Positions 34,672 through 63,864 of a DNA stretch of 64,000 bases are shown one piece after another. Position 1 is the first letter of the stretch, and every line of letters begins with the position of its first letter. The notes under the pieces were generated by a model. It searched no databases. It saw only the letters and a program-made list of their open reading frames with translations, and was not told the origin of the DNA. Both the position numbers and the translations under genes were made by a program. The stretch comes from a virus. Lineage: Duplodnaviria > Heunggongvirae > Uroviricota > Caudoviricetes. The DNA is taken from the IMG/VR virus record IMGVR_UViG_3300032307_000691. The stretch is one strand, 5' to 3'.

Positions 34672-34701
34672 TTTTTATGATTATTGTACAAAGATATAAA
34701 A

Positions 34702-34725: not shown

Positions 34726-34727
34726 AA

Positions 34728-34758: not shown

Positions 34759-34784
34759 CTTCTAACTAATTGAAAATCAGTTTA

Positions 34785-35129: not shown

Positions 35130-35130
35130 T

Positions 35131-46046: not shown

Positions 46047-46309
46047 TCGTCAATATTGAAATCATCATTCAAGTACTCTTGGTACTTTACTTGAATCATG
46101 TGTGTGTAATGTTGTTCTCTTGTGTGTCTTTGGATAGTTTCAACAACCGCATCCGCGTGTCCCTGTCCAAACTTTTCTACCATCTCGGTATACTCATCAG
46201 TATTTTCGAAGTCCAATAAATGGTCAACCACCTCATATACTTTAGTGGATGCTAATGGTTCGAAATCATCAAAGGTTAGTTTTAAATTTTCCATAACAAT
46301 AAATATCAA
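46043..46309 (-). CDS. hypothetical protein (88 aa)
   Basis: ORF track. Confidence 0.45.
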   Translation of the reverse strand: MIFIVMENLKLTFDDFEPLASTKVYEVVDHLLDFENTDEYTEMVEKFGQGHADAVVETIQRHTREQHYTHMIQVKYQEYLNDDFNIDE

Positions 46310-47508
46310 TTACTTAAAGGTGCCTTAATTGATGGGTGAGATTGGTAATTCAACAATTCAAAATTATGAATACTGTAATAATCCAAATCTAACTTATTTG
46401 GGTCCGGTTTCCCAAATTCAAATAAGGTAGGACTTATTTTTAATATGGGTAACTTAAATGGTTCTCTAGTATGTCTTGGTATTTCATATTCATCGTATGC
46501 CCAACTTAAACCTCCACCAAATGGTACCAAATCTTTTACCGCGGAATTATAATTCTTCTCACCCATTGCATTTTTTAATAACGTAATTCTCTCTTCATGA
46601 GAATACTTTCTACCAATTTGTTCTTTAGCTTGTTCAATATGATTTAGATATAAGTGTGTGTCACCCAAGTTTCCAATCAATTCATCTGGAATCATATTTA
46701 CTTCTTTTGCGATAATTTCGAGTAACAAAGCATAACTCGCTATATTGAATGGTAATCCTAAAAAAGTATCAACTGAACGTTGATTCCACATTAATGAGAT
46801 TGCTCGTTTTGGAACTCTCAAACTATCCATATGGACGTGATGATAATCCGAACTTCTACCCAACGGGTCTTTTGTTTTGTTGTAATAATCGATTCGTTCA
46901 TCCAAGTTCAACTCTCTTGTATAAACTTGAAACCCATAATGACAAGGTGGAAGTACCATTCGGTTTAATTCACCTACATTCCAAGCATTAACCATTAATC
47001 GTCTTGAGTCAGGATTTGTTTTAAGGTCGTTGATTAGGTTTACGATTTGGTCTGTGTTAGAATTTAATCCTTCCCAACTTCTCCATTGTTCACCATAGAT
47101 TGGACCTAATTCACCCCACTTTTTAGCAAACTCATCATCGGTTTTGATTTTGTTGATGAAGTCTTCTTTAGAAATTAAAATTCGAGTTTCGTGAAAATCT
47201 TTATCATTCTCATTAGGTCGACTATTGTTTAAATAATTCATATACGCATCACCATCCCAAATATGACAACCATTATCAACAAGGAACTTGATATTTGTAT
47301 CACCACGAAGGAACCATAATAACTCGGTCACCATAGTTTTCCAAGCCATCTTCTTAGTAGTTAGAAGAGGAAACCCTTCACTCATCTTATGACGGATTTG
47401 TCTACCGAATACTGAAATAGTGCCGGTACCTGTTCTGTCTTTCTTCTCCACACCATTATCTATGATGTCCTGAAGAAGTTTCTGATATTGCTTATCAATG
47501 TTATTCAT
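46306..47508 (-). CDS. thyA: thymidylate synthase family protein with large insertions (ThyA; a dNMP hydroxymethylase cannot be excluded)
   Basis: GFPLLTTKK...LLWFLRGDTN, GPIYGEQWRSW, LPPCHYGFQVYT, DTFLGLPFNIASYALLLEIIA...GDTHLY; about 400 aa versus roughly 264-316 typical. Confidence 0.75.
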   Translation of the reverse strand: MNNIDKQYQKLLQDIIDNGVEKKDRTGTGTISVFGRQIRHKMSEGFPLLTTKKMAWKTMVTELLWFLRGDTNIKFLVDNGCHIWDGDAYMNYLNNSRPNENDKDFHETRILISKEDFINKIKTDDEFAKKWGELGPIYGEQWRSWEGLNSNTDQIVNLINDLKTNPDSRRLMVNAWNVGELNRMVLPPCHYGFQVYTRELNLDERIDYYNKTKDPLGRSSDYHHVHMDSLRVPKRAISLMWNQRSVDTFLGLPFNIASYALLLEIIAKEVNMIPDELIGNLGDTHLYLNHIEQAKEQIGRKYSHEERITLLKNAMGEKNYNSAVKDLVPFGGGLSWAYDEYEIPRHTREPFKLPILKISPTLFEFGKPDPNKLDLDYYSIHNFELLNYQSHPSIKAPLSN

Positions 47509-48646: not shown

Positions 48647-49012
48647 ATGTTAGCAATAGTAAACGGAAAACAATTCCAAGGAGAATACCTAACCCAACCC
48701 CATGAGATTCAAAAAGGAATGATGGGTAGAGATTCTCTTGATGGTTGTATGGTTTTTAAAATGGGAATGGGGCATCACACGTTTTGGATGAAAAACTGTG
48801 TTATCCCATTAGATATTGTATTTGTAAACAAGAATAGAATTTCCCATATACATCAGAATTGTCCTCCCGCAGATTCACACGATATGAATCCACCGAGGTA
48901 TACTGGTATCGGTGACCACGTAATAGAATTCCCTGCAGGTACCTGTCAAGGTTGGAAGGTTGGGGATAAGGTTAACCTCTATCTTGGTACTCCACAGAAC
49001 CCTGTGGGATAA
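48647..49012 (+). CDS. DUF192-family protein
   Basis: HTFWMKNCVIPLDIVFVNKNRI matches the DUF192/COG1430 core. Confidence 0.5.
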   Translation: MLAIVNGKQFQGEYLTQPHEIQKGMMGRDSLDGCMVFKMGMGHHTFWMKNCVIPLDIVFVNKNRISHIHQNCPPADSHDMNPPRYTGIGDHVIEFPAGTCQGWKVGDKVNLYLGTPQNPVG

Positions 49013-49672
49013 AATCGTAAGTAACCTTCGGTTTCACTTTCTCGAATACCCAAAAATAACTGTGGTACTTTCTTGCGTGGTGTTGTTTTGACCACTTGGT
49101 TCCGTTAAATGCATTCACTCTGATGTTGGAAGTTAAGACAAACATATCTCTTGGATAGAATCCAAGTGAGTATGCCATGTTCATAACCATAACGTGACTG
49201 AAATATTGTTTACCACCTGACACTGTGTCCTGACATTTCATCACCACAAATCCACCATCTTCACACAACCTGTAAAGTTCTTTGAGTGTGTTGTAGTAAT
49301 TTGATTTTAAATCATCGTAGGTTCCATAACCCTCAAATCTTTTAGCGATGATAGAACTTCCTTCTCTATTGTTTCTGTAACGAGCTCCACTACCAACAAT
49401 AACGAATGGTGGGTCGTACATGATATTTTTCATTGAACCTGATTCAAACGGTAAGTCCTCTGAGTTTGCCTCAATGACATGGTCGTAATGGGGATAAAGG
49501 TCGGTCTTATGTACCGGGTCGGGTAATCCCTTCCAAAAGTTTCCTTTTGAATAGGTACAATCCAAATCGAATCGTTCAATACCGTACAAATGCATGATAT
49601 TAGTAATTGCTTCGTGGTTAGAGGTATACACACTCTTTACCATCTTAAAATCTTTATCCATAGTTATCATAT
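48972..49672 (-). CDS. DNA N6-adenine/N4-cytosine methyltransferase-like protein
   Basis: IMYDPPF motif-IV-like DPPF; start trimmed to MITMDKDF. Confidence 0.45.
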
Positions 49673-49680
49673 CGTTGAAT

Positions 49681-49713
49681 TTACTAAAATATAAATAAAA
49701 ATTTTCAAATAAC
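49681..49713 (-). promoter_or_regulatory. 33-nt conserved AT-box (copy 1 of 2)
   Basis: tactaaaatataaataaaaattttcaaataacc; 29/33 identical to 62243..62275; 9 nt upstream of start 49672. Confidence 0.5.
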
Positions 49714-49805
49714 CAAACAACCCTACACATTGTCTCAAAAACCTCGTATACTTAGATAGAAACTTTTAAGAAGTAACATAATTATAAGAAAAAGAAATCA
49801 ATATT

Positions 49806-50285: not shown

Positions 50286-51644
50286 ATGAAGAAAAAGATT
50301 TTATTATTATCCGATGATTTGAGAATGACATCGGGAGTCGCAACCATGTCCAAAGAAATTGTACTTGGGACCATACACAAATATGATTGGGTACAATTGG
50401 GCGGTGCATTAAACCATCCTGAAGCCGGTAAGATTGTCGACATTAATGAAGATGTGAGAAAAAGAACAGGTGTTAAGGATGCCAATTTAAAAGTGATTCC
50501 AAACAATGGTTATGGAAATATTTTCACTTTAAGAATGTTAATGGAGGTTGAGAAACCTGATGCCATTTTACATTTCACCGACCCACATTATTGGCAATGG
50601 TTGTACGATGCGGAACATGAGATAAGACAACAAATTCCTATTCTATATTATCATGTTTGGGATAACCTACCCGACCCAACCTATAACAGAAACATCTATG
50701 AGAGTTGTGATTGGATTGGTTGTATCTCTAAACAAACATATGGTTTAGTTAAACGAGTTAGTTCAATTGATACTGAGGAAACATTCCAACCATTAAAGGA
50801 TTGGCAAGTTAGTTACGTTCCTCACGGTATTAATCCTGATGTGTTTAAACCGGTGGATACGTTGTCAGATGATTTACGTAAACATATCTTCGGTGAGAAA
50901 GATTACGAATTCATTTTATTCTTCAATAACAGAAACATTAAAAGGAAACAACCAGCTGATGTGATTCTATCATATAAACTATTCTGCGATTCTTTAACGA
51001 AAGAACAATCAGAGAAATGTTTATTGTTGATGCACACAACACCAATTGATGAGAACGGGACCGACTTAACTGTCGTATCTAAATCATTGTGTCCCGATTA
51101 TGATATTAAGTTTATTGATTTAAAATTAGAACAAGATAAATTAAATGAACTTTATAATATTGTTGATTGCACCATTAACATTTCAAACAATGAAGGTTTT
51201 GGTTTAGGTACCGCAGAGAGTATCATGGCGGGAACTCCAATCATTGTAAATGTTACCGGTGGATTACAAGACCAATGTGGTTTTAATTATACCGCGGAGA
51301 ACTATGTAACATTTGGTTCATTACACAATAAGAAGGTACATGGGTCAACAAAACACGGCGAGTGGGTTGTTCCGGTATGGTCGGATGTGAACAACCTAAA
51401 TGGTTCTATCCCCACACCATTCATTTATGAAGACCGAGTTAACAATAATATTGTTGCAGGTGCAATTGGTGAAGTATATGGTTGGGGTAGAGAAGAAAGA
51501 AAACGTAGAGGTTTAGTTGGTAGGGAATGGGCAATCGAAAACCTATCAAGTAAAGTAATGTGTGATGGAATTATAGATGGAATTGAAACCACTTTAAAAA
51601 AATATAAACCCCGTAAACGATTTGATTTATATAAGATAGTATGA
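50286..51644 (+). CDS. glycosyltransferase (GT4/GT1-like)
   Basis: C-terminal EGFGLGTAESIMAGTPII matches the GT4 E(G)FG...G.P(I/V)I signature. Confidence 0.65.
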   Translation: MKKKILLLSDDLRMTSGVATMSKEIVLGTIHKYDWVQLGGALNHPEAGKIVDINEDVRKRTGVKDANLKVIPNNGYGNIFTLRMLMEVEKPDAILHFTDPHYWQWLYDAEHEIRQQIPILYYHVWDNLPDPTYNRNIYESCDWIGCISKQTYGLVKRVSSIDTEETFQPLKDWQVSYVPHGINPDVFKPVDTLSDDLRKHIFGEKDYEFILFFNNRNIKRKQPADVILSYKLFCDSLTKEQSEKCLLLMHTTPIDENGTDLTVVSKSLCPDYDIKFIDLKLEQDKLNELYNIVDCTINISNNEGFGLGTAESIMAGTPIIVNVTGGLQDQCGFNYTAENYVTFGSLHNKKVHGSTKHGEWVVPVWSDVNNLNGSIPTPFIYEDRVNNNIVAGAIGEVYGWGREERKRRGLVGREWAIENLSSKVMCDGIIDGIETTLKKYKPRKRFDLYKIV

Positions 51645-52888
51645 GTAAACCATTTTTACTTTTTAGAGGACCAGTAGAAACCGTTAGTGGTTATGGTGCA
51701 CATTCGAGAGATTTATTAAGAGCACTACGTGATATGGATTTATTTGATATTCGTATTGATTCTTGTCATTGGGGTGCAACACCAAGAACCGCGTTAAATA
51801 AGAATGATGAATTCAGTAAATGGATTTATGCAAACAAAATAACAACCTTATCTGCCACACCTGACATCTATGTTCAAGTGACGGTACCGAATGAGTTTCA
51901 AAGAGTTGGTAAGTTTAATATAGGAATCACAGCAGGTATTGAAACTACCGCAGCACCAAAGGAATGGGTTGATGGGTGTAATAGAATGGATTTGATTATA
52001 ACAACTTCTAATTTTAGTAGGGATGTTCTTCTTCAAACCGTCTTCAATGAAACCGATAAGTTAACAGGCAAACTTGTTAAACAATATAAAATCGAAAGAC
52101 CGATTGAGGTTCTCTTCGAGGGTGTCGATACCGACGTGTACAATAATAAATTCACAAGTCTCGATGTTGATATTAAGGAAGATTTTTGTTATCTTTTTGT
52201 TGGTCACTGGTTGAAAGGTGACATTGGTCAGGATAGAAAGGATGTTGGTATGTTAATTAAATCATTTGTTGAGTCGTTCAAGGATACTGAGGACCAACCA
52301 GCATTAGTTTTAAAAACATCATCAGCAGGATTTTCTGTGAAGGAAAGAGAAACCTTCAAAAAGAAAATTAAAGACTTGGTGAAGGGTATTGAGAATCCTC
52401 CATCGATTTACCTTCTGTTCGGACAACTAACCGATAACGAAATGAACGAATTATATAATCACCCAAGAATTAAAAGCATGATTACTCTTACTAAGGGTGA
52501 AGGATTCGGTCGACCACTACTTGAATTTTCAATGACAGGTAAACCAATCATCGCATCCAATTGGTCAGGACATAGAGATTTCTTACCTATGGATAAAGCA
52601 ATTATGATTGGTGGAGCATTAACAGATGTTCATTCAAGTGCGGTTGACAATTTCATTGTTAAGGATTCTAAATGGTTCACTGCAAATTATTCGGAAGCAA
52701 TAGAAGTAATGAAGATTGTAAAGAGAGATTATGATGAGTTCTATGAGAAATCTCAAATTTTGATGGAAGAAAATAAAGAGAAGTTCTCAATGGAAAGAAT
52801 GAAAGAAGTGTTTCAATCAATCATCACACCGTATGTTGTTAAACCAAAAGAAGTTAAAATAAATTTACCTCAATTAACTAAATTATAA
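51641..52888 (+). CDS. glycosyltransferase (GT4/GT1-like)
   Basis: GEGFGRPLLEFSMTGKPIIASNWSGH. Confidence 0.6.
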   Translation: MSKPFLLFRGPVETVSGYGAHSRDLLRALRDMDLFDIRIDSCHWGATPRTALNKNDEFSKWIYANKITTLSATPDIYVQVTVPNEFQRVGKFNIGITAGIETTAAPKEWVDGCNRMDLIITTSNFSRDVLLQTVFNETDKLTGKLVKQYKIERPIEVLFEGVDTDVYNNKFTSLDVDIKEDFCYLFVGHWLKGDIGQDRKDVGMLIKSFVESFKDTEDQPALVLKTSSAGFSVKERETFKKKIKDLVKGIENPPSIYLLFGQLTDNEMNELYNHPRIKSMITLTKGEGFGRPLLEFSMTGKPIIASNWSGHRDFLPMDKAIMIGGALTDVHSSAVDNFIVKDSKWFTANYSEAIEVMKIVKRDYDEFYEKSQILMEENKEKFSMERMKEVFQSIITPYVVKPKEVKINLPQLTKL

Positions 52889-53163
52889 TGGGATTAAGTA
52901 GTTTTAAATTTGGTAGAGATAACTATACAAAGGAATTTACACTAACCAATGATTATCTACCTTTATTAAGAATTGCTCCGGCAATAACATTTCAACAAAC
53001 AGAGTGGGTGTTTCAGTTTGATGATGAACAGCCGGTGGTATTTGCTTCACAACAAGAAGAACCCAACCTAACCATCACACTCAACAACACAAATCACGCA
53101 TCAATAGAATTCACAGACAATAACAGAAGATTTAAAATATTCGCAAGGGAGAGACAACAATGA
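52888..53163 (+). CDS. hypothetical protein (91 aa)
   Basis: ORF track; translationally coupled. Confidence 0.45.
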   Translation: MGLSSFKFGRDNYTKEFTLTNDYLPLLRIAPAITFQQTEWVFQFDDEQPVVFASQQEEPNLTITLNNTNHASIEFTDNNRRFKIFARERQQ

Positions 53164-53786
53164 AAATCAGCTATGGAATCACGGTATGTAATGAGTTAGA
53201 GGAAATCAAACGATTGGTACCTCTATTAATTGAGAACAAAAGAATTGAGGATGAAATCATAATTCTTTTTGATGACAAAAATGGAAGTCAAGAAGTTTTA
53301 GATTTCTTATTACCATTTAATAAATTACCAAATGTTCAAACGTGGAGAGGTTTGGTATTTGTAAATGATTTTGCGATATGGAAAAATAAACTGAATGGTT
53401 ATTGTTCAGGAGATTATATTTTCCAACTTGATGCAGATGAATTAATTACAAAAGAACTAATATTGAATTTACCGGAAGTAATCGAATCTAATCCTGAGGT
53501 GGACTTGTTTGTATTCCCACGAATTAATACCGTGAAAGGAATCACAGACGAACACATTAAAATGTGGGGATGGAGAATGGACGATAAAGGTAGAATCAAT
53601 TTCCCCGATTGGCAAGGAAGATTATATAAGAAGGGTTTAAATTGGCACGGAAAGGTTCATGAAAAGATTGTGGGTGCTAAAACCTATTCTCTCATGCCCG
53701 AAGATGAGGGGTACTGTCTTATCCACGAGAAAACAATTGAAAGACAAGAAAGACAAAATAATTTTTATTCTAAAATAACTAAGTAA
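53160..53786 (+). CDS. glycosyltransferase family 2
   Basis: YGITVCNELEEIKRL...FDDKNG...QLDADE (DxD). Confidence 0.6.
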   Translation: MKISYGITVCNELEEIKRLVPLLIENKRIEDEIIILFDDKNGSQEVLDFLLPFNKLPNVQTWRGLVFVNDFAIWKNKLNGYCSGDYIFQLDADELITKELILNLPEVIESNPEVDLFVFPRINTVKGITDEHIKMWGWRMDDKGRINFPDWQGRLYKKGLNWHGKVHEKIVGAKTYSLMPEDEGYCLIHEKTIERQERQNNFYSKITK

Positions 53787-54580
53787 TGGTTAAAATCATA
53801 TCCAATTATTCTGGTTTAGGTGGGTCCACCATAATCTTAATTAACTTAACAAATCTATTCAACAGTAAAGGTATCAAAACAACATTCTATGGTCCACACG
53901 ATTACCACATGGATAAGTGTGACGGTAAAAAACTAACAGATTTAAAATTAGATAAAGATGATATCTTACTGACCCATTTTTTTAAATTTGATAAGAGACC
54001 GAATGTGAAACGTGTGGTATTGGCATCACATGAAAAATGGTGGTTTGAGATTGCAGATTGTCCGAGATATTTTGATACAGTTGTTTTCAATCATGAGGAA
54101 CAACGAAACTATCATAGTAGATATGACGGACCATATGTTCTAATACCCAATCCAAAAGATGTTACATCACCACTTTACGCAATTGACAAACCTGAAAAGG
54201 AAATGATTGCTGGTGTTATTGGTAGTATTGAGACAAGGAAACAAACTCACCTATCAATAGAAAGAGCTCTTGAGGATGGGTGTGAGAAAGTATTGGTGTA
54301 CGGTAAGATAATGGATGATGCATATTTTAAAAAATATTGTAGAAAATATGAATACCATCCAAACGTAAAATTCATGTGGCAAACTGACAATAAACAAGAA
54401 ATGTATAATAGTATTGGTCGAGTTTATCACATGTCAAAGGGTGAAGTTTCATGTTTAGTAAAAGATGAATGTCATTACACAAATACCAAATTCTTTGGTA
54501 ATGAACAAACTGAACACGTGGTATCAGATTTAACCAATGATGATATTTTCTTATTGTGGAAAGATGTTTTAAAATTTTAA
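53786..54580 (+). CDS. hypothetical protein, possible glycosyltransferase accessory (264 aa)
   Basis: ORF track; in-operon position. Confidence 0.45.
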   Translation: MVKIISNYSGLGGSTIILINLTNLFNSKGIKTTFYGPHDYHMDKCDGKKLTDLKLDKDDILLTHFFKFDKRPNVKRVVLASHEKWWFEIADCPRYFDTVVFNHEEQRNYHSRYDGPYVLIPNPKDVTSPLYAIDKPEKEMIAGVIGSIETRKQTHLSIERALEDGCEKVLVYGKIMDDAYFKKYCRKYEYHPNVKFMWQTDNKQEMYNSIGRVYHMSKGEVSCLVKDECHYTNTKFFGNEQTEHVVSDLTNDDIFLLWKDVLKF

Positions 54581-54583
54581 TGG

Positions 54584-55687
54584 ATGGACATTAGTTTAGT
54601 ACTTGCAGTATTCAATAAATTAGATTTAACTAAGGATTGTTATAAAAGAATCCGTGAAATTTATCCCGACGCACCACTTGTTATCAGTAGTGGTGGTTCT
54701 ACAGATGGAACTAAGGAATGGTTAGAGTCACTAGCCGATGATAACCTATCTTACATTCATGACGATGATAAGTTAGTTTTTTCAGAGAACTACAATGCTG
54801 CAATCAAGTTAGTGGATACTGAAAAGTTAGTGTTGATTCACAACGATATGGTCATTGGGAGACACTTTCTTGAGAATTTGGATAGATTACTCACGCCAGA
54901 CACTTTGTTGTCTTATACGACCTTAGAACCACCGATTTTTAAGGGACATAACAGACCCGGTAAGGTAATTGTAGATATGGGTTATGGTTTCCACGATTTC
55001 AAATGGTTAGAGTTTGACAAATATGTTGAAGAGAATAAATCAGATTGTAGAATATACGATGGTGCAGTATTCTTCATGAGTGGATACAAGAAGATGTTTG
55101 AGGATGTTGGGTTCTTTGATGGGTTTAGTTTCGTACCGGCATTTGCTGAGGACGATGATTTCTTAATCAGGGCCAAACTCAAAGGTTACAAATTAAAAAC
55201 AACCACTTGTGCAATCACCTATCACTTTGTTTCTCAAACATCAAGGTTTAGTGATGACTTTAAGAATGATAGAATGAAGTATGAGATTAACTCAAATAGA
55301 AACTTTGTTCGTAAGTGGGGCATACCCATCCCCGCATTTAATGAATTGAGGTATTGGGAGGATTCTTTGTTTACTTATAAAACATTTACCATGGGCTTAA
55401 CTACCCGAAATCGTTCAAGGTTATATGAGATTGAACCATTCTTCGATAAGATTGATTTAGGGATAATTCCTGAGGATTATTTGGAGAATGAACAGAAGAA
55501 CACCCGTTATGATTTAAGGTCAAAATTTGTCCTTACTGACGTTGTGGATGTAATGGTATATGAACTAAGTCCTTTGACCGATGAGGACATTTACACCCTA
55601 CAAAAATTGCGTTTATCGATACCACATTACCCCATTGGGGAATACAAGATTGGTTCGATGAAAATAGAAATAAAAAAGGGGGTATAA
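54584..55687 (+). CDS. glycosyltransferase family 2
   Basis: ISLVLAVFNKLDLTKDCYKRI...SSGGSTDGT...IHNDMVI. Confidence 0.6.
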   Translation: MDISLVLAVFNKLDLTKDCYKRIREIYPDAPLVISSGGSTDGTKEWLESLADDNLSYIHDDDKLVFSENYNAAIKLVDTEKLVLIHNDMVIGRHFLENLDRLLTPDTLLSYTTLEPPIFKGHNRPGKVIVDMGYGFHDFKWLEFDKYVEENKSDCRIYDGAVFFMSGYKKMFEDVGFFDGFSFVPAFAEDDDFLIRAKLKGYKLKTTTCAITYHFVSQTSRFSDDFKNDRMKYEINSNRNFVRKWGIPIPAFNELRYWEDSLFTYKTFTMGLTTRNRSRLYEIEPFFDKIDLGIIPEDYLENEQKNTRYDLRSKFVLTDVVDVMVYELSPLTDEDIYTLQKLRLSIPHYPIGEYKIGSMKIEIKKGV

Positions 55688-55698
55688 ACCCCCTTTAA
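55673..55698. terminator. bidirectional rho-independent terminator
   Basis: AAAAAGGGGGTATAAACCCCCTTTAA between convergent genes. Confidence 0.65.
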
Positions 55699-55717: not shown

Positions 55718-56182
55718 TTATTCATTTGGTTTTTGTACCAACATGAACAATAAGTTATAATCGTCCGTTGTTTCTCCGACCTTTTCCAAATCTTCCATTG
55801 TTAGTGGCGTGTATTCAATCTCCTTGTCTTCGCCTAACAAAGCATTGAATTCGTTTTGGAATTCCACATATTGTGGGTTGAGTTCTCGTGAGATGACTTT
55901 ATCGTTTTCATCTTTTTGCTCGATGAATACGCCAATTTGAATTCCACCTTTACCATCATCCTCACCATGTTTTTGAATGATTTCATCACGAAGTGTTTCG
56001 ATTGCTTTGCGTTCAGCGGCCAATCTATCACCCAACTCGCTCAACCAATATTTTGTCTTTAGAGGTAGTTTATGTTTTCTAAAACCCACGAACACTTCTT
56101 TTCCGTTCTGTGGATTTACAAACCCATTAATCTCACTTTCTAATTGTAGGACCTGTCCTAATTTTAATGTTAGTTTTGCCAT
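55718..56182 (-). CDS. hypothetical protein (154 aa)
   Basis: ORF track. Confidence 0.5.
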   Translation of the reverse strand: MAKLTLKLGQVLQLESEINGFVNPQNGKEVFVGFRKHKLPLKTKYWLSELGDRLAAERKAIETLRDEIIQKHGEDDGKGGIQIGVFIEQKDENDKVISRELNPQYVEFQNEFNALLGEDKEIEYTPLTMEDLEKVGETTDDYNLLFMLVQKPNE

Positions 56183-56234
56183 TTTAATATTTTATTTTTT
56201 CTTTATTATACGAATTATTTTTTGATTTGTCAAG

Positions 56235-56795
56235 TCAATACCACCAACCTTTACCACTAAATTCGGCGAAATCAAATAATAAATTGATTCTATCGATTGA
56301 ACCTCGATTGTTGACCTCATGTTGACGCATGTTATTCAATTCAAACATTTGTCCAATCTCAAAGAATTTACTCTCTTCTTCAACAACATATTCTACTTTA
56401 TCCCATTCACAAATTAATGGTACGTGAATACGGTGTGATAGATTGTAAGAACCCCCAACATCTTTATGAGATTTAATACTTTGTCCTGCCGGTAATCTTA
56501 CCAGAACCGCCCGAACAACATAACCCCAATTATACTCTTGTTCAAGTTTCTTTAATAATGGGTCAATTAGTTTATCAAAATCTAATCTATGGTACAACTC
56601 ATGTTTGGTTCCGTTGAAATGTCGGAAATCGTTGTCATAGATTATTGCTAAGGTCTTCGATGCTCCGTGCATTGGATTAGCATCTTGTCTCCATGTATAT
56701 CTATCCCACTCTTCGGTTGGGATTTGAGATACCTTATCCAACCATGGTTGAATATCCACCTTACCGTAATCTTTGAAGTTTTCTTTTATATTCAT
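56235..56795 (-). CDS. aspartyl/asparaginyl beta-hydroxylase-family 2OG oxygenase
   Basis: SHKDVGGSYNLSHRIHVPL...NNMRQHEVNNRGSIDR resembles the AspH H...H(L/V)GL...fDDsfeHev.N...R pattern; start trimmed to MNIKENF (ATGA overlap). Confidence 0.5.
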   Translation of the reverse strand: MNIKENFKDYGKVDIQPWLDKVSQIPTEEWDRYTWRQDANPMHGASKTLAIIYDNDFRHFNGTKHELYHRLDFDKLIDPLLKKLEQEYNWGYVVRAVLVRLPAGQSIKSHKDVGGSYNLSHRIHVPLICEWDKVEYVVEEESKFFEIGQMFELNNMRQHEVNNRGSIDRINLLFDFAEFSGKGWWY

Positions 56796-57796
56796 AAAAT
56801 TGTAAACAGTGCGTAGGTTAACATTATTGAAATCCAAATGATAAGTGCCTTTAAATAAACCATAAATCCTGTGTGGAAATATTTCTGACCTATTGGTAAA
56901 CACTTATGTGTTGGTGATATTAAATATGCGGAGTATTCCAATGTGAAGAACAATACAAAGTATTCCATGCCAAATGCCGCTGTTAATAAACTAACGATAC
57001 CAGCATACTTTGCGGATGAACCGAGTAAGAAAGATGCAAGGAAACCAAAAATAGAAACCAAAACAATATTCTTACTCAAAGCAAATTGTTTGATGAATGC
57101 TTCGATGTATGTGTAATAAGAATTAATTAAGTTTCCGAGGACAATTACAATGGCAACAATCACAACTAACTCCCAATTAATATAATCCAATAGTTTGAAC
57201 CATGACTTGGAATAACTAACCAAGTAGTATGTGAATACAATGAAAGCTAAAAAGTAATAATCAGTTACACAACTAATTAAAATGGTGGTGAGGAATGGAA
57301 CCACAACCAACCACATGTTCTTCCAATTAATTGGTTCATCATGTACCTCTATGTCAATCTCATCATCGTTTAGTGACATGATGTAAAATGAAATGTATAC
57401 CCCTGTTATCAATAACAATGGCCATATATAAGACATAAAAGTCATATATGATAAACCAAGTACCGCCATCGGAATGATAACAGTTTTCTCGAGAGGTGAC
57501 CATAGATAATAATGGTGAGTTGCCAAGTAATCAATGATACCGAACTTCTTTCTTTTCTTATTATCCACAGGCGCAATACTATTCAACATACTAGCTGATA
57601 AAGCAACTCTACCGGGTATTGGAAGTACTCCACCAAACAATGAAACAAGAAAGACGACTGCTTTCTTTGATTTGATTTTCTGTGTTAGTAATCGAAATAA
57701 GTCCGTAAGGTATCCTCTTTCTTTGAGGATACCCGTTACGAACATTATTGAAATTAAATAGATTAGGAACTCTTGTCCCTTAATTAAAATCTCCAT
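56792..57796 (-). CDS. polytopic membrane protein (about 9-10 TM), putative transporter
   Basis: 334 aa, very hydrophobic. Confidence 0.5.
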   Translation of the reverse strand: MEILIKGQEFLIYLISIMFVTGILKERGYLTDLFRLLTQKIKSKKAVVFLVSLFGGVLPIPGRVALSASMLNSIAPVDNKKRKKFGIIDYLATHHYYLWSPLEKTVIIPMAVLGLSYMTFMSYIWPLLLITGVYISFYIMSLNDDEIDIEVHDEPINWKNMWLVVVPFLTTILISCVTDYYFLAFIVFTYYLVSYSKSWFKLLDYINWELVVIVAIVIVLGNLINSYYTYIEAFIKQFALSKNIVLVSIFGFLASFLLGSSAKYAGIVSLLTAAFGMEYFVLFFTLEYSAYLISPTHKCLPIGQKYFHTGFMVYLKALIIWISIMLTYALFTIL

Positions 57797-58746
57797 GCGA
57801 ATATGATTGTGCTTCGTGATGCTTTAGAATCTTGAGTTAACCCCGGCATCACTTCCACGGTTAAATAAGCATGACCATTAAATCGATATTGAAGAAGTGG
57901 TCCGAGATAATACTCATTACTACCACCACTATAATCATTGTGACGATACATACCACTAACACCTAAAGTTAAATCGTTGTTGACGATGTGACCATACGAT
58001 GCTGTTGATGCATACTCAGGTTCTCTTTCCTCTTTAGTATTGGCTAAATTACCTTCATAGATAAGGTTCAAACCCCAAATACCATTGTTACCGATTCTAT
58101 CACCAAGTAATAGTTTTGGTTCAATACCCCAATACCCATCTAACATTTTCATTTCATAATAGATGGTTGGGTTACCCCAAATCTTACCCCAATCGGCAAG
58201 TGCATACCTTAATTCCCATGAGAAGCCCCTCCAACTGAAGGTCTTGTTGCCATTTTCACCATCATAAACGGTATGAGAGTACAGGTCTAATTGTAATCTC
58301 TTTCCTAAACCGAAGGTGAATTCATCCCTCATTCTAATTTGGGCCGGACCGTCCCTGCGGTCACGAATGTCAAACCATTTCTCATACATGACTGAACCTG
58401 GTGGGTTCATCACGTAGACCCTAGTTGAAGGGAACATCCTCATTGTACTCCACAAGGGTTGGTTGTATGGACCTACCTTTGTTTGGAGGGGATATTTCTT
58501 TGCGGTTACAATAACAGCTTCCATTTCCATCGGACCCATAATGGTATCTTTTACCTTAGTTGAATCCTTGGTTCTTGCCTGTTCTGAACCTCTACTTATA
58601 GCAGAATTGCTGTATTGTGCATTTACAGATGTTGCACCCATCAAAAGAAGGAGAAATGTCAACTTCCCCGTTTTGTTTCCCACAAACCCAATGATTGTTG
58701 AAACGACATTGACCAACCAAAATGATGGTCTTTTTTTTACATTCAT
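57784..58746 (-). CDS. outer-membrane beta-barrel-like protein
   Basis: Signal peptide ending VNAQ; Y/W/G-rich; C-terminal ...IIFAWRF aromatic terminus typical of OMPs. Confidence 0.5.
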   Translation of the reverse strand: MNVKKRPSFWLVNVVSTIIGFVGNKTGKLTFLLLLMGATSVNAQYSNSAISRGSEQARTKDSTKVKDTIMGPMEMEAVIVTAKKYPLQTKVGPYNQPLWSTMRMFPSTRVYVMNPPGSVMYEKWFDIRDRRDGPAQIRMRDEFTFGLGKRLQLDLYSHTVYDGENGNKTFSWRGFSWELRYALADWGKIWGNPTIYYEMKMLDGYWGIEPKLLLGDRIGNNGIWGLNLIYEGNLANTKEEREPEYASTASYGHIVNNDLTLGVSGMYRHNDYSGGSNEYYLGPLLQYRFNGHAYLTVEVMPGLTQDSKASRSTIIFAWRF

Positions 58747-58810
58747 TCTTTTGTTATTAATGTAATTTATGTGTCAAAGCACCTTACAATAATAACAAAA
58801 AATATTCGAA

Positions 58811-59143
58811 TTATAAAATGTTTCTAAGGATAATTGTTAGAGAAATCATTATCCACAATGTATTGAAAACGATGAGTGTGGGTAGTGATTTTTTCATACT
58901 TGCCCAAATCAATAGAGAAGATGTAAGAAGCGTAAAGAAGTGTAACCACCAAACCTCTTTTCCAAAAATTAAACCGGGTATGATAATTGCGGCTTTAGCC
59001 ATCCAAGCTGCGAATTCAATTACATTGTAATCAGTCCAATACGATTTGTATTTGTACATCAAAATCTTATCCTTTATTCTACTGTAACCAATAAAGTAAA
59101 AGAGTAATCCGATAAAAATTGTATAGCTAAGAATGTTAATCAT
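58811..59143 (-). CDS. small membrane protein (110 aa, 3-4 TM)
   Basis: ORF track. Confidence 0.5.
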   Translation of the reverse strand: MINILSYTIFIGLLFYFIGYSRIKDKILMYKYKSYWTDYNVIEFAAWMAKAAIIIPGLIFGKEVWWLHFFTLLTSSLLIWASMKKSLPTLIVFNTLWIMISLTIILRNIL

Positions 59144-59309
59144 TGATTCGGTTTAAAAGGTTTTCTTTAATCTCATTCTCATCTTTGAATAAATGAAAAT
59201 GAACGGGTTTATTACACATACAAGTGAAGTCCATATATTCGTTCACTAGTTCTTTATACTTCGTTTCTAAAAATTCAATTCGTTCTTTTAATTCTTTAAT
59301 CTCGTCCAT
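59137..59309 (-). CDS. possible small coiled-coil protein (about 57 aa) bridging the halogenase and membrane genes; coordinates approximate
   Basis: MDEIKELKERIEFLETKYKELVNEYMDFTCMCNKPVHFHLF...; overlaps the halogenase 3' end in another frame. Confidence 0.2.
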
Positions 59310-60831
59310 ATTTCTCCCTTAATTGTTCATAAAGGTTTGGTAATAACTCAGTCAAGAGTTTTGTTTCATATTTAATTAAATCTATTTTCTTTTCCATGTA
59401 AGGAAGATACTTTTCTTTGATTTCAATCCTTGGTCTTCTTCCAAATGGATTGTTGTAAAAGAATCCCGTGCCCCATAACCATTGGAACCAGTTTACTGAA
59501 CCGAAGATTCTACCTCTGAATAATTCCTCAGCAGGTCTCACGGCCATAATCTGTAACTTCTGCATCAATGTGTCAGGAATAAATGATTTGGTTTTACAAT
59601 CTCTCCAAAAAGGAGTATCGTTTCTTTGACAAGTCAGGTAGTGTGCGTGAATGAAATCACGAATATCAATCATCATATCAATATTATCCTTGTTGATAAT
59701 ATCAATTGTTTGTGAAGTGTAGTTCAAATCGTTTCTTTCAAGTTCAGTTGCCAATGTTGACATAATTCCTTGGAAGGTAGAAATGCCGGTTGATTCCATT
59801 GGTTCGGCAAATCCTCCTGCCAATCCACAAGCAACAACATTTTTAACCGCAACTCTTTCACGAGTACCAACTCTCATGTTGATTTTTAAAACATCACCTT
59901 CATAACCACCATGGAATTCTCTAAACTCCTTCTCAGCTTCTTCATCAGTAATATACTTTGATGAGTAAACATAACCGGAACCGATTCTATCATAAATTGG
60001 TGTTTTCCATAACCAACCACTATTCATCGTATACAATCTACTGTAAGGTTCCATTTCTGTTGACTTATCCTTGTATTGAATAGGTGCAGCAATCGCCTTA
60101 TCACAGAATAATGAATCTTCAAATGAGATGAATGGTTCACCCATTACCGATTCAATCAACGCACCTTTGAAACCTGAACAATCTATATAAAGGTCCGCTT
60201 TGAACTTTTGTTGGTCCCATAATTTAATATCTTGGATGAATCCAAAATCATCAAGTTTAACTTGTTTAAGGTCACCCTCAACAAACTTTACTCCATTAGG
60301 GATACAAACTTTATTTTTGATTACCTCTGCGAATTTGATTGCATCGAAATTGTAACTATAAACACTTTCAATATCGTTAAACGTTGGGATGTAACTTAAT
60401 TCATCATCAACAGTTGGTGATAGGTTTTGAAGTGCTAAGGTTGGTGAGAGAAATAACTCATTTATTTTGTGTGGGTCATTCTCATGATATTTTAAAAGAT
60501 ATTGTAAGAGATTTGTTTTTTGATTGATGTACAATGTTTGTTCGTTCTCCACCAAAACAAAATGGTCGCCCTTTTCTGACCAATTCATAAATCTCCCACC
60601 GTATTTGTAAACTGCTGAAGATTCTTCCATCCAATCTTTTTCTTCCAATCCAATGAACTTCATAAAGGAATGAAGACTTGCGGTGGAGCTTTCACCCACA
60701 CCAATTGTTCCAATTTTTTTGGAATGAATTAATGTAATATCAAGTTTATCTTTAAAAACTTTTGATAATAATGCCGCGGTCATGATACCTGCGGTACCGC
60801 CACCGACGATTAATATTTTTTTTACTTCCAT
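59296..60831 (-). CDS. flavin-dependent halogenase (tryptophan-halogenase family)
   Basis: N-terminal ILIVGGGTAG FAD fold; GWLWKTPIYDRIG matches the halogenase WxWxIP motif. Confidence 0.7.
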   Translation of the reverse strand: MEVKKILIVGGGTAGIMTAALLSKVFKDKLDITLIHSKKIGTIGVGESSTASLHSFMKFIGLEEKDWMEESSAVYKYGGRFMNWSEKGDHFVLVENEQTLYINQKTNLLQYLLKYHENDPHKINELFLSPTLALQNLSPTVDDELSYIPTFNDIESVYSYNFDAIKFAEVIKNKVCIPNGVKFVEGDLKQVKLDDFGFIQDIKLWDQQKFKADLYIDCSGFKGALIESVMGEPFISFEDSLFCDKAIAAPIQYKDKSTEMEPYSRLYTMNSGWLWKTPIYDRIGSGYVYSSKYITDEEAEKEFREFHGGYEGDVLKINMRVGTRERVAVKNVVACGLAGGFAEPMESTGISTFQGIMSTLATELERNDLNYTSQTIDIINKDNIDMMIDIRDFIHAHYLTCQRNDTPFWRDCKTKSFIPDTLMQKLQIMAVRPAEELFRGRIFGSVNWFQWLWGTGFFYNNPFGRRPRIEIKEKYLPYMEKKIDLIKYETKLLTELLPNLYEQLREKYGRD

Positions 60832-60840: not shown

Positions 60841-61572
60841 TTATCCGTTTGAAGGTGTAACCGCATCGAAACGTGAGTCACCCGGAATGATTGTTCTTTC
60901 TACTGGTAAAACCACATTGATGATTTCATCTCCTTCTGCGGTTTTTAACTGATTAACGTATGTTTCTTCGTCAACAAATAACTGAGTAACTTGGGCATTG
61001 TAATTGTCAACTGCATTGAGTACTAATGGTACTAAATCTGCAACGGTTGTATTCTTAACGGTCGCTAATGCGGATAATGTCGGTGTGTCAACAGTGTTGT
61101 CTGCAAGATACATTCTCGCTTCATCCTCTTGTAACTTCCAAGTTGCCCTTTCTTGAGGAGTTTTATTTGCCGATAAGGTTTCAAATTTATTTTTAAAATA
61201 GTTCTTAACCATTCTAATTCTCAACCATCTAATTGCTTCATATCTATCGACAACTTCTTCATCAGTCATTGGTCTTTTGATTCTGATACCTTTTAATTTA
61301 TCAAAATCTTCATCAAAGAATTCTTCCTCTTGTCCGCTAGAATAACCTTTATATAATTTAGCAGAATCTTTAGTTGCTACATAAAAAGCCAATCCATCAA
61401 TTACTTGTTGTGGACATAATTGAATGCTGTACTTATTAAGTGTTGCCAACGATATTAAATTAATATCGGGTATTGAAGCGAAGAAGGTATTGTCAGCATA
61501 TCTTACAATTTCTATTCCGCTTAAATTTGGTTGTGGTTCTCCTTGAGGGACGTTAAATGCGATGTAATCCAT
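60841..61572 (-). CDS. hypothetical protein (243 aa), possible virion protein
   Basis: ORF track; adjacent to the tail-fibre-like genes. Confidence 0.5.
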   Translation of the reverse strand: MDYIAFNVPQGEPQPNLSGIEIVRYADNTFFASIPDINLISLATLNKYSIQLCPQQVIDGLAFYVATKDSAKLYKGYSSGQEEEFFDEDFDKLKGIRIKRPMTDEEVVDRYEAIRWLRIRMVKNYFKNKFETLSANKTPQERATWKLQEDEARMYLADNTVDTPTLSALATVKNTTVADLVPLVLNAVDNYNAQVTQLFVDEETYVNQLKTAEGDEIINVVLPVERTIIPGDSRFDAVTPSNG

Positions 61573-62228
61573 TATTGTTGTTGTTTAAAATCAATTTCTT
61601 TTATTTGACCAGATTGTAATTGTTCTTGGTCGCCCACCATATCTAAATATTTTACTTGACCCTTTACTTCATTCGCAATCTTAGTAGTTTCAACCAAAGC
61701 AGCTCTAAAATTTTCAGGTCCCATCTGCATCAATGCTTCAAGGTTACCGACCCCAATACGTCCAACGGTTAAAATCTCAAGAGCCGATTGTGTTGCCAAT
61801 CGTTTAATCCAATAATCATGTTCATGCGCTTCTTGATTACTCATCATTTCATTAACATCATATTGTGCCCTGAACTCACTTTCAATCTTTTGTAGATTTT
61901 CTATTTCAGAAATAATTCTTGTTCTATTTCTTAAAATGTTTTCATATGTGATATCATTTTTCTTGATATCAAATTCATATAATTTCTTTTGTGCTGGAGA
62001 TGTTTCATTCTCCATTTTTTCAATCAATAAATCTTTTTCTAATCTATTTTTTTCAACTTCCAAATTGATTTGCTCGGCATTCGTGTAACGAACTTCTAAT
62101 TCCAATAAAATTTGTTTAAACTGTCGGTATGGATTGTGTTGGGAATTAACAACAAAATGTTTGATTTGAAACTCCGACATGGAGAAAACCATATCCTTAT
62201 ACTCTTTTGGTAACAACTCTTCTTTCAT
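61572..62228 (-). CDS. coiled-coil protein (218 aa)
   Basis: ORF track; preceded by the conserved AT-box. Confidence 0.5.
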   Translation of the reverse strand: MKEELLPKEYKDMVFSMSEFQIKHFVVNSQHNPYRQFKQILLELEVRYTNAEQINLEVEKNRLEKDLLIEKMENETSPAQKKLYEFDIKKNDITYENILRNRTRIISEIENLQKIESEFRAQYDVNEMMSNQEAHEHDYWIKRLATQSALEILTVGRIGVGNLEALMQMGPENFRAALVETTKIANEVKGQVKYLDMVGDQEQLQSGQIKEIDFKQQQ

Positions 62229-62277: not shown

Positions 62278-63864
62278 TTAATATGAACTCCACATTGGGG
62301 AAGCTGAACTAATTTGTCTCGGAGCGTCGGCAATATTAACTATTGTCTCGACATTATAGTTAATCTTATCGGTATGAGCATTTTGACCTGAGTTACAGTT
62401 ATAACCACCAGCAAAGTACCCCCAATTCATTCCCATAACTCCCGAATGTTCGTTGTTGTATAATGTTTGAGATGCAGTACTACTTAATGTCCATGTTGAG
62501 GTCACCATATCGAATTTAAAAATTGCGTTTCCTGCTGTCGTCGTACAATAGGAACCACCCCAGTTACCCGCCAAGAAAAATTTCTCGTGTTTACTATTAA
62601 CACCTTTCTCGGCACCCCCACCCGGCATCCCTAATGAACCCGGACTGTTTGTTGTTGTAATTACTGCCCACGTATCGGTTGCATGAGGCATTCTATTTGT
62701 TACGGTGTTAGAACCACCATATGAAGATGCAAATTGAAAACTATAATCTTTGTTAAACCAACCAACACCATATTGACCAAGAGGAGCACCTCCTGAACTT
62801 GACCATGTTTCTGTACTAAATCTCAGAATATCCATTTGGTCATTACCCTTACCATGTTCGAATGCTCTTGTACCATATGTTGCCACGGTATTGTAAAGGT
62901 CACCTTGGTAACTTGGTAACGATGACGGCATAAATCCAACCCCTTCTTGTGAAGATGATGGTGAGCCACCGGCACCATTTGGTCTGTTGGCAATTGATTG
63001 TACAGAATCTGTTGGGAAGTTTACCCTATCATTTGTTACATCTCCATTCTGTACGTTATGATATACATAACCATTAACCAATGAACTTGCCCATCCACCA
63101 TACTTAATTGCCTTATTTAAGTTATTTGACATTGTGGACCAAGCATCAGTGGCAAATGAAAGTTTAGTTACTTGATTATATATGGTACTACCGATGTATC
63201 CCCCACCAATAAATCCTCTAATTAGGTTTAGTGAGAAACGATATAAATCTCTATCAAATCCAAATACTTCTCTACCATTATGTCTTAAACTTGCATAGTT
63301 ATCGACGATTGTTAATGGATTACCATTTGAACCCGCTTCACCACAAATAACACAAACAGCATCTGTTGATGCAATTGTTGTACTTGATGAATTTGTGAAG
63401 TTTGTCCATGGACCGTCCGCACTAATTGTTGAGTATTGTAATGTTAATGTGTTTCCTGAACGTTGCCATTTTAACCAATAACCAGGTGCGGATGAACCAC
63501 TACTTTGTATTGGTGCGTGATATTGACCAAAGAATGTTGCAGAATAACCATTTGGGAATCCTGAGGTGTTTAATGCACCGGCATATGGTCCTGCACCATC
63601 CGCAGAGTATCCATTAAAATCAAAGTGGTGTACGTTGGGGCCGTAAACAAACCCCGCACCGATATAATCATGTGCCCAATATGCTACAATTCTAAAATCT
63701 TCACCTGCCGCAAATGTTCTGTTGTATACAACAGTGGTATAACCGCCTGATGGAGGTGTAAATGTTTTGTTACTATTTGACAAAGTACCACCTGTGTGAT
63801 AGGTCGATGCCTTTCTCCATCCAGGACTTCCATCTAATATTTCTATGTCGCCGTTTACTATCAT
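62278..63864 (-). CDS. tail-fibre-like / receptor-binding-like Gly-rich structural protein
   Basis: 528 aa, G/S/T/N-rich; C-terminus ...CNSGQNAHTDKINYNVETIVNIADAPRQ paralogous to the next gene. Confidence 0.45.
   Translation of the reverse strand: MIVNGDIEILDGSPGWRKASTYHTGGTLSNSNKTFTPPSGGYTTVVYNRTFAAGEDFRIVAYWAHDYIGAGFVYGPNVHHFDFNGYSADGAGPYAGALNTSGFPNGYSATFFGQYHAPIQSSGSSAPGYWLKWQRSGNTLTLQYSTISADGPWTNFTNSSSTTIASTDAVCVICGEAGSNGNPLTIVDNYASLRHNGREVFGFDRDLYRFSLNLIRGFIGGGYIGSTIYNQVTKLSFATDAWSTMSNNLNKAIKYGGWASSLVNGYVYHNVQNGDVTNDRVNFPTDSVQSIANRPNGAGGSPSSSQEGVGFMPSSLPSYQGDLYNTVATYGTRAFEHGKGNDQMDILRFSTETWSSSGGAPLGQYGVGWFNKDYSFQFASSYGGSNTVTNRMPHATDTWAVITTTNSPGSLGMPGGGAEKGVNSKHEKFFLAGNWGGSYCTTTAGNAIFKFDMVTSTWTLSSTASQTLYNNEHSGVMGMNWGYFAGGYNCNSGQNAHTDKINYNVETIVNIADAPRQISSASPMWSSY

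Follow-up and report, generated by a model that had tools for sequence, protein, structure and literature searches.

Halogenases, 2-oxoglutarate (2OG) oxygenases and glycosyltransferase islands are already known from phages. The phage-borne halogenase VirX1 has been characterised in vitro, but for no phage halogenase is a natural substrate or a biological role known to us. Here we describe a gene cluster in a 64-kb window (the whole stretch of DNA analysed) of the IMG/VR virus record IMGVR_UViG_3300032307_000691, in which a flavin-dependent halogenase (Hal) and an AspH-like 2OG oxygenase (AspH) flank a gene pair encoding a predicted outer-membrane beta-barrel protein (OMP) and a DUF401-family inner-membrane protein. 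Our searches turned up no published account of the OMP-DUF401 pair, of the way it is coupled to alternative enzyme cassettes, or of cassette exchange.

Large cyanomyoviruses have been described that carry lipopolysaccharide (LPS) and exopolysaccharide (EPS) genes, including the outer-membrane exporter gene pgaA, kdsA/B and a PrnA-type halogenase (PMC12801897). Their islands, such as that of S-SCSM2R (with pgaA, kdsA/B and PrnA) and those of P-SSM4, S-RIM2 and Syn19 (with neighbouring genes termed p218 and c3 here), resemble the window locus in combining accessory enzymes with envelope-directed genes in large T4-like phages (PMC12801897). The window p218 is homologous to the gene that precedes c3 in these cyanophages, and DUF401 follows c3 in phage S-H25; unlike the cyanophage islands, the window has Hal and the AspH-like enzyme in place of c3, methyltransferase and radical-SAM genes. 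The COG4313 channels are 12-stranded barrels with a lumen occluded by an N-terminal segment, and they have been linked to taking up hydrophobic molecules, examples being TcpY for trichlorophenol and SphA for sphingosine (PMC4493636).

A conserved OMP-DUF401 pair with exchangeable enzymes

Approximately 100 related loci (cited by L numbers where one has to be singled out) were compared, 80 from IMG/VR and the rest retrieved by exact-protein look-ups. The comparison revealed that the conserved unit is the translationally coupled OMP-DUF401 pair, which lies in a tail-fibre-proximal accessory island beside a glycosyltransferase cluster. The two genes were adjacent with the same overlap of approximately 13 nt in 79 of 87 loci. 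Homologue clusters numbered 527 for OMP, 1432 for DUF401 and 32 for AspH, and Hal and AspH were found in only approximately 4–6% of the family members.

The order p218, p243, Hal, small transmembrane (TM) protein(s), OMP, DUF401, AspH, p154 and convergent glycosyltransferase cluster was shared by 11 loci on independent metagenomic contigs, with identity to the window reaching down to 57% for Hal and 47–53% for AspH. A sequence-only reading of the window had grouped the halogenase, a membrane protein, the barrel, the transporter and the hydroxylase as one five-gene set; this set does recur in the same order on the 11 loci, but the unit conserved beyond them is OMP-DUF401 only. In 68 loci (approximately 80% of the relatives), the space between p243 and OMP was occupied by a radical-SAM gene, a gene for the Cys-rich protein c3 (345 aa) and a Methyltransf_24 gene, and AspH was absent. 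A few other loci contained c3 fused to the methyltransferase together with extra fibre genes (Peptidase_S74, Laminin_G_3). Relative to the window, the radical-SAM-type loci showed identities of 70–80% for OMP and DUF401 and of 23–30% for p218 and p243.

Hal and AspH flanked the pair on opposite sides and always co-occurred in the 11 halogenase-type loci, and the AspH homologue contexts inspected (6 of the 32 clusters) all had the same gene order. In simple neighbor-joining trees of OMP, DUF401 and GT367, which carry no support values, the halogenase-type loci were polyphyletic and mixed among the radical-SAM-type loci; furthermore, the OMP of L027 (halogenase type) was 97.2% identical to that of L029 (radical-SAM type). 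Because of this polyphyly and near-identity, we conclude that enzyme sets were exchanged by recombination on near-identical backbones and that the pair was retained. An additional 2OG oxygenase gene (2OG-FeII_Oxy_5) preceded the radical-SAM gene in six radical-SAM-type loci (e.g., L031:5148-5792), which further indicates that this site gains and loses oxygenases.

Hal, OMP, DUF401 and AspH are real, constrained genes under purifying selection and not chance open reading frames (ORFs). Their dN/dS values against the nearest relative, L011, were 0.04, 0.16, 0.06 and 0.03, respectively, and are rough, since dS was approximately 0.5 for OMP, and the other three had values near 1 or higher, close to saturation. 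The five minus-strand ORFs that the sequence-only reading had listed were all present, together with an unlisted 57-aa ORF (s57). Start and stop codons overlapped at the Hal/s57 (−14 nt), s57/tm110 (−8), OMP/DUF401 (−13) and DUF401/AspH (−4) junctions, the last being the ATGA overlap noted earlier, and gaps of +64 nt and +52 nt separated tm110 from OMP and AspH from p154. The co-directional run exceeded the five genes, continuing upstream into p243, p218 and a 528-aa fibre-like gene and downstream into p154 (Table 1).

Table 1. Features of the cluster and its flanks. Positions are those of the 64-kb window unless a locus is named; ORFs were taken from a six-frame list.
Feature	Position	Strand	Remarks
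Hal, flavin-dependent halogenase, Trp-halogenase family	59296..60831	-	511 aa; PF04820
s57, small hydrophilic protein with CxC motif	59136..59309	-	57 aa; bridges Hal and the 110-aa gene
tm110, membrane protein, ~3 hydrophobic segments	58811..59143	-	110 aa; from hydropathy
OMP, predicted 12-stranded outer-membrane beta-barrel, COG4313/Phenol_MetA_deg-FapF fold	57784..58746	-	320 aa; signal peptide, disordered linker, conserved N-terminal segment before strand 1
DUF401 inner-membrane protein, predicted IT-superfamily (elevator-type anion transporter) fold	56792..57796	-	334 aa
AspH, AspH/LpxO-family 2OG-Fe(II) oxygenase	56235..56795	-	186 aa from ATG; mechanical ORF reaches GTG at 56903
p154, conserved acidic protein	55718..56182	-	154 aa; closes the co-directional run; weak phrog_1401 match only
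Sigma-70-like promoter match, TTGACA-17-TATAAT	56205..56233	-	12/12; between AspH and p154
Intrinsic-terminator-like hairpin	55675..55696	-	9-bp stem and T-tract; ends the minus-strand run
p243, conserved upstream gene	60841..61572	-	PHROG match; 9 nt from Hal
p218, conserved upstream gene	61572..62228	-	PHROG match; p218-c3(-DUF401) neighbourhood
Gly/Ser/Asn-rich fibre-like protein	62278..63864	-	528 aa; weak Kelch_4 and phrog_1417 matches
Five glycosyltransferase-like genes and a 91-aa ORF, convergent	50286..55687	+	Pfam GT4/GT1 and GT2 matches
c3 examples in related loci	L004:6213-7280; L009:3965-5005; L008:2925-4508; L106 (P-SSM4 34591-36156)

At the DNA level, the only match among deposited phages was a 170-bp stretch at 68% identity inside the DUF401 gene, and the phage is one without a close cultured relative. 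The OMP family was absent from all 50,697 deposited phage records (tblastn). Among 185,579 bacterial species genomes, homologues of OMP or DUF401 were found at nine loci, mostly on short phage-like contigs of metagenome-assembled genomes (MAGs), and none had OMP beside DUF401. Related contigs reached 250–324 kb, and the genome shares genes with T4-like cyanomyoviruses. The closest counterparts of its nicotinamide phosphoribosyltransferase (NAMPT) gene were in phages of Leptolyngbya (68%) and Tenacibaculum (60%), a hint of cyanobacterial or Bacteroidota hosts that does not amount to evidence.

The encoded proteins and their described relatives

Judged from its sequence, Hal is a full-length, catalytically intact-looking flavin-dependent halogenase. 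It matched Pfam Trp_halogenase (PF04820; E=1.5e-108, 364 bits vs a cut-off of 21, residues 5–457) and the PHROG family phrog_2928 'tryptophan halogenase'. Among solved structures, it aligned over its full length with the Trp 6-halogenase Th-Hal (5lv9; E=7.9e-84), in agreement with the Trp-halogenase-family flavoprotein proposed earlier, and it also matched VirX1 (6qgm; E=3e-71), PyrH, Thal, RebH and PrnA; past residue ~430, in the C-terminal substrate module, the alignment to solved structures was poor.

The motifs GGGTAG (10–15; GxGxxG, flavin-binding), Lys76, WLWKTP (273–278) and FAEPMESTG (341–349) were invariant in six aligned relatives. Lys76 stands in the segment AVYKYGGRF, which aligned with the catalytic-Lys segment ATYKLAVRF of Th-Hal, so that the catalytic Lys and, in FAEPMESTG, the Glu singled out for checking are both kept. 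An intact WxWxIP motif had also been reported; the actual sequence is W273-L-W-K-T-P278, with Thr for Ile, and all six relatives have the same variant. Variants of WxWxIP have been found in active halogenases, as described in the source of the halogenase motif definitions (PMC8407142).

Halogenases and 2OG oxygenases were dispersed in the accessory regions of many marine phages. The earlier view of such enzymes and envelope components as unusual phage cargo does not stand, as homologues were present in 64 phage records, among them that of Syn10, from which VirX1 comes, and viral structure libraries also contain outer-membrane barrels. Hal shares with VirX1 and the cyanophage 'tryptophan halogenase' homologues the Pfam family and fold (29–36% identity to the cyanophage proteins), GxGxxG, the catalytic Lys, the Glu and the F..P..S.G tunnel motif, and, as with them, no classical biosynthetic gene cluster surrounds this viral cargo. 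It is closer to bacterial Trp 5-/6-halogenases than to VirX1, its alignment with Th-Hal including the C-terminal module; unlike VirX1 and the cyanophage proteins, it has WLWKTP in place of WxWxIP, is set among small membrane proteins and the outer-/inner-membrane pair, and is strictly paired with an AspH-like oxygenase. Hal is a new, rather bacterial-like member of the phage halogenases.

AspH matched Asp_Arg_Hydrox (PF05118; E=6e-11, 42.8 bits vs a cut-off of 22.6) over model positions 75–155 of 157, the C-terminal half. H110-x-D112...H159 (iron triad) and R169 (2OG-binding) were invariant in 14 homologues, which bears out the aspartyl/asparaginyl-beta-hydroxylase-like 2OG oxygenase of the sequence-only reading. 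These H-x-D...H...R ligands and the Pfam match are shared with the AspH/LpxO/OlsC family, whereas the window protein is short (186 aa), covers only the C-terminal half of the domain, has no membrane segment or anchor, and belongs to a narrow clade: 5.8 billion proteins contained only 32 clusters of homologues, each of them from this phage group. It showed no sequence match among solved structures, and NCBIfam gave just one match, weak (E=0.04), to the lipid hydroxylase OlsC.

OMP showed no Pfam match at E<=0.1 (PF13557 Phenol_MetA_deg included) and no PHROG match. An alignment of 29 of its homologues had a mean identity of 70%. The N-terminus is signal-peptide-like (...LLLLMGATSVNAQ/YSNS), with predicted cleavage before a QYS motif conserved in the 29 homologues, and the C-terminus (...FAWRF) ends in the aromatic signature AWRF common to all of them. 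The AlphaFold model had exactly 12 strands (pLDDT 78.8; barrel >85), and the proposed barrel with signal peptide and aromatic C-terminus was thereby corroborated. The signal peptide is followed by a variable, disordered linker of ~35 residues and then by the consensus L-x-E-V-I-V-T-A-K-K-x-P-L...VGPY-QPLW.

A profile search of 1.8 billion representatives revealed a wider OMP family of 479 clusters. Matches to Pfam Phenol_MetA_deg came from 6 of the 20 distant family members examined (best E=1.5e-5) and from one close cluster (P0101), and the best structural matches of the model were channels and not outer-membrane enzymes. As modelled, OMP is a distant COG4313/Phenol_MetA_deg relative with the same predicted 12-stranded fold, not a filed member of that family. 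Unlike the COG4313 channels Pput2725, TcpY and SphA, it falls below every Pfam threshold, has the ~35-residue disordered linker and a conserved L-x-E-V-I-V-T-A-K-K segment undescribed in COG4313, and is encoded by a phage, in translational coupling with an IT-type inner-membrane protein. FapF, the secretion channel for Pseudomonas functional amyloid, resembles OMP in barrel fold only; identity was 13%, a coiled-coil trimerisation domain was not evident, and the inner-membrane partner is different. Neither FapA-E operon partners nor amyloid subunit genes were found near OMP in the ~100 loci. A BFVD fold search with OMP returned only small unrelated barrels (TM-score <= 0.44).

Residues ~67–90 of OMP read 'D-T-x...L-x-E-V-I-V-T-A-K-K', and a looser 'LP-x-V-x-V' was kept in distant family members. 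This segment resembles the TonB box, or the start of the plug, in TonB-dependent receptors and is a putative TonB box; 12-stranded barrels that interact with TonB would be unusual.

DUF401 is a domain of archaea, bacteria and phages. The window protein matched PF04165 (E=9e-7, above the gathering score) and phrog_14035 (E=6e-82), and it scored 44 bits against the TIGR00529 equivalog, far under the cut-off of 378. It has ~10 hydrophobic segments, and its predicted fold, taken from a low-confidence model (pLDDT 63), is that of the IT superfamily, of secondary-transporter and not flippase type, in line with the multi-TM transporter-like protein noticed earlier. At 334 aa, it is shorter than the characterised IT-superfamily transporters (TRAP DctM, ArsB, VcINDY/DASS, NaS1), and unlike the TIGR00529/DUF401 family the phage proteins form a separate clade (phrog_14035). 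No sequence match was found among solved structures, and a literature search for DUF401 retrieved no characterised member, only prefix artefacts such as DUF4015.

The two small proteins between Hal and OMP showed no family match (s57 in Pfam and PHROG). Homologues of s57 occupied the same position in L026/L027 and L100. tm110 was 75–91% identical and directly upstream of OMP in the halogenase-type loci, and it was also present in three radical-SAM-type loci (L049, L054, L055). A precursor peptide for a ribosomally synthesised and post-translationally modified peptide was considered at this place; besides the CxC and 3-TM proteins, the small ORFs include one more small membrane protein in part of the relatives, and none of them is an evident candidate. 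This additional membrane protein looks DUF2892/YgaP-like to us, an assignment that Pfam did not confirm.

Surrounding genes and the p218-c3-DUF401 association

The wider island contained fibre and tail genes near the cluster in the relatives (Peptidase_S74 and Laminin_G_3 proteins, and a tail sheath gene in L059). The p243/p218 pair (60841..62228) matched phrog_1604 and phrog_1409. Identity of p218 to the window gene was 68–84% in L011, L026 and L027, 54% in L001/L002 and ~29% in the radical-SAM-type loci. On the other side, p154 followed DUF401/AspH in 56 of 87 loci, and in most loci the glycosyltransferase cluster lay beside it, at 60–86% identity; the clusters of relatives add epimerase/dehydratase, UDP-galactopyranose mutase and methyltransferase genes. 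No nonribosomal peptide synthetase, polyketide synthase or cyclase domains were found in the cluster or its flanks.

The promoter match upstream of p154 is a consensus match only, the total of promoter-like sites in the region being not above that of shuffles; p154 may be expressed apart from the rest of the run, perhaps early. The terminator-like hairpin (55696-55675), the strongest of the region, lies between p154 and the last glycosyltransferase gene, which converge. The T4-type late promoter motif TATAAATA was not enriched within the window.

The genes c3 and p218 were present, always side by side, in exactly the same 126 deposited phage genomes, which belong to T4-like cyanomyoviruses and the Ralstonia jumbo phages RP12/RP31. 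Its product has seven invariant Cys (NEGCxGxCP...CxFxCWxCxxC) and is often fused to a Methyltransf_24/YrrM-like domain. In Ralstonia phage RP12, on a Pseudomonadales MAG contig and on a Leptospirales chromosome, DUF401 came directly after c3; on the contig and the chromosome alike, a p243-like ORF lay between p218 and c3. Synechococcus phage S-H25 had an extra 165-aa ORF between c3 and DUF401, and in S-CAM4 DUF401 was located elsewhere in the genome. In P-SSM4, p218 and c3/methyltransferase lie a few genes downstream of a tail-fibre gene, beside a gene for a Gly/Ser-rich 'sericin-like' protein, a position occupied in the window by the 528-aa gene. No c3 was found within the 64-kb window, although p218 and DUF401 are present. 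Because the p218-c3-DUF401 order recurs in distant phages and bacteria, DUF401 has a long-standing link to this enzyme and fibre-side neighbourhood.

Weak Pfam matches of c3 to Peptidase_U32 (E=0.013) and to a xylose-isomerase-like TIM barrel (E=0.008), together with its fusion to or position beside a YrrM-like O-methyltransferase, prompted the idea of a U32-type (UbiU/UbiV, TrhP-like) hydroxylase, which was later left unsupported by a negative profile comparison with Escherichia coli UbiU and UbiV. On a 6.4-Mb contig of a Leptospirales MAG (L095:756-10088), genes for a 1523-aa DUF6519/Laminin_G_3 protein, a p218 homologue, a 229-aa ORF, c3, DUF401 and a patatin-like phospholipase stand together; this locus may represent the remains of a prophage, or a phage-tail-like element, bearing the same module.

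Further observations concern other parts of the genome. ORFs of 69–142 aa with precomputed Pfam 'Gp23' (T4 major capsid protein) matches lie inside the glycosyltransferase clusters of relatives (L100:15362-15571, L102:15564-15821 and 19002-19430 in one further relative); the positional counterpart in the window, the 91-aa ORF (52888-53163), had no Pfam match. A capsid-protein-like fragment is odd in such a cluster and might bear on virion glycosylation. Window genes at 15811-16818, 18353-19324 and 20130-21650 include one that partially matches phrog_1211 (E=2e-70), a PurZ-type '2-amino(oxy)adenylosuccinate synthetase', over the N-terminal part of that profile, near ribose-phosphate pyrophosphokinase and nicotinamide phosphoribosyltransferase genes, which suggests possible functions in 2-aminoadenine DNA and NAD+ salvage. 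At 46306-47508 and 48972-49730, a 400-aa thymidylate synthase and a nearby DNA N6/N4 methylase are encoded; the former is longer than the PHROG profile span (residues 1–317 on positions 29–280), which suggests that it carries an insertion.

A possible conduit across two membranes

We assign a probability of approximately 40% to the reading that the cluster encodes a conduit through which a small hydrophobic or aromatic anion passes both host membranes, and that swappable tailoring enzymes are coupled to it. The cluster would then be an accessory module of a large myovirus-like phage with a diderm host. Its core would be the translationally coupled OMP and DUF401 proteins spanning the host envelope, with the tailoring enzymes attached to this constant pair being Hal and AspH here and the radical-SAM enzyme, c3 and O-methyltransferase in most relatives. 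During infection, the pair would serve as a route dedicated to one small compound, hydrophobic or aromatic and probably anionic, through both membranes. The cytoplasmic enzymes would halogenate and hydroxylate this compound or a precursor of it. The order may be import followed by modification or synthesis followed by export. We favour this reading because of the translational coupling, the strict co-occurrence of Hal and AspH, the exchange of cassettes on a constant pair, an outer-membrane fold tied to hydrophobic and aromatic compounds and an inner-membrane fold tied to ion-coupled anion transport. That the enzymes and the transport pair act on one molecule, and that this molecule is small, is what we infer beyond the gene order, folds, motifs, co-conservation, exchange and selection described above. 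The modification-and-export module proposed earlier is retained as far as enzymes stand together with envelope components, but transport may run in either direction, and the closest outer-membrane relatives with a proposed function are uptake channels.

Several observations weigh against the conduit. The pair is unchanged by the cassette, with a 97% identical OMP beside either enzyme set, which fits a shared scaffold and functional independence equally. OMP occurred without DUF401 in L015 (9995-10846), L057 and L061, where its neighbours were thymidylate synthase, 4HBT thioesterase and HAD phosphatase genes, and DUF401 occurred without OMP in the cyanophage and Ralstonia phage records carrying it. 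The halogenases of other phages had no dedicated transporter adjacent, and neither a core biosynthetic enzyme nor a convincing precursor-peptide ORF was found. The inner-membrane fold comes from the low-confidence model (pLDDT 63) described above. Finally, the exchange affected the whole left block (fibre-like gene, p218, p243 and enzymes) and not the enzymes alone, so that linkage to the fibre allele could explain the pattern.

Because the cluster lies in a tail-fibre-proximal region, modification of virion proteins is a live, if somewhat unlikely, alternative to the small-molecule tailoring first proposed: Hal, AspH and the glycosyltransferases (elsewhere the radical-SAM enzyme, c3 and methyltransferase) would decorate the Gly/Ser/Asn-rich fibre-like proteins, and OMP-DUF401 would have a separate function in the same island. 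Protein Asp/Asn hydroxylation is the founding activity of the AspH family, and peptide-Trp halogenases exist, both of which suit such a role. It is further consistent with the Peptidase_S74, Laminin_G_3 and tail sheath genes in the surroundings and the fibre-like gene upstream, with the placement of p218 and c3/methyltransferase in P-SSM4 near a tail-fibre gene and beside the 'sericin-like' gene, with the co-variation of cassette type and fibre-side allele (p218 at 54–84% in halogenase-type and ~29% in radical-SAM-type loci), and with the indifference of OMP to cassette type. AspH, however, stands on the far side of the pair and is coupled by ATGA to DUF401 and not to a fibre gene, DUF401 is linked to c3 and p218 across very distant phages, and Hal aligns over its full length with free-Trp halogenases.

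The glycosyltransferase genes allow another explanation, which we consider distinctly improbable, namely that the cluster acts with them in remodelling the host surface (LPS, lipid or glycan), for example blocking superinfection or stabilising the envelope, with AspH as an LpxO/OlsC-type lipid hydroxylase and OMP as a lipid-handling barrel or a glycan/lipid conduit. The glycosyltransferase cluster is a conserved neighbour to which relatives add epimerase, UDP-galactopyranose mutase and methyltransferases. PF05118 also includes lipid hydroxylases, and the sole NCBIfam match of AspH was the weak one to OlsC (E=0.04). As a precedent, pgaA and other LPS/EPS genes occur together with a PrnA-type halogenase in large cyanomyoviruses (PMC12801897). 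Set against these points, no lipid or glycan is an obvious substrate for a flavin-dependent aromatic halogenase, AspH is without a membrane segment, the DUF401 fold is that of a secondary transporter and not a flippase, and the best structural matches of OMP are channels and not outer-membrane enzymes. PADLOC models gave no match to 10 proteins of the region at E<=0.01, which also speaks against remodelling, and nothing supports a defence system or the exclusion system suggested earlier.

That the genes form no functional unit at all, being unrelated accessory genes ('morons') of a recombination-prone island beside fibre genes whose co-occurrence reflects linkage and shared descent, is quite doubtful: the region shows strong mosaicism, with three or more cassette types, insertions (the 2OG oxygenase of six loci, small TM proteins, fibre genes) and varied right-hand neighbours, OMP and DUF401 are each found alone, and halogenases and 2OG oxygenases are scattered through many marine phages' accessory regions, but start/stop overlaps join Hal-s57-tm110 and OMP-DUF401-AspH, Hal and AspH co-occur without exception despite their separation by the pair and the polyphyly of the halogenase-type loci, and the p218-c3-DUF401 synteny persists among cyanophages, a Ralstonia jumbo phage and bacterial chromosomes.

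A COG4313-fold outer-membrane channel, as modelled here, is common cargo of uncultured large phages (527 clusters), though absent from deposited phage genomes, and the cluster provides a first contextual clue for DUF401. If the coupled conduit is real, phages would manipulate small-molecule traffic across the host envelope in a modular way. The wider proposition, that a widespread set of large uncultured phages encode their own two-membrane route serving interchangeable chemistry cassettes, so that a small aromatic metabolite is either taken up and derivatised or produced and released by infected cells, is unlikely on our estimate; if true, the phage would be running a pathway akin to secondary metabolism, in which swapping of cassettes diversifies the chemistry and the product in the window lineage would be halogenated. 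The locus ties a phage halogenase to a strictly co-occurring hydroxylase and to a dedicated-looking outer-/inner-membrane pair, and its near-identical backbones with different enzyme sets offer a natural comparison that makes the question of phage-halogenase substrates experimentally approachable.

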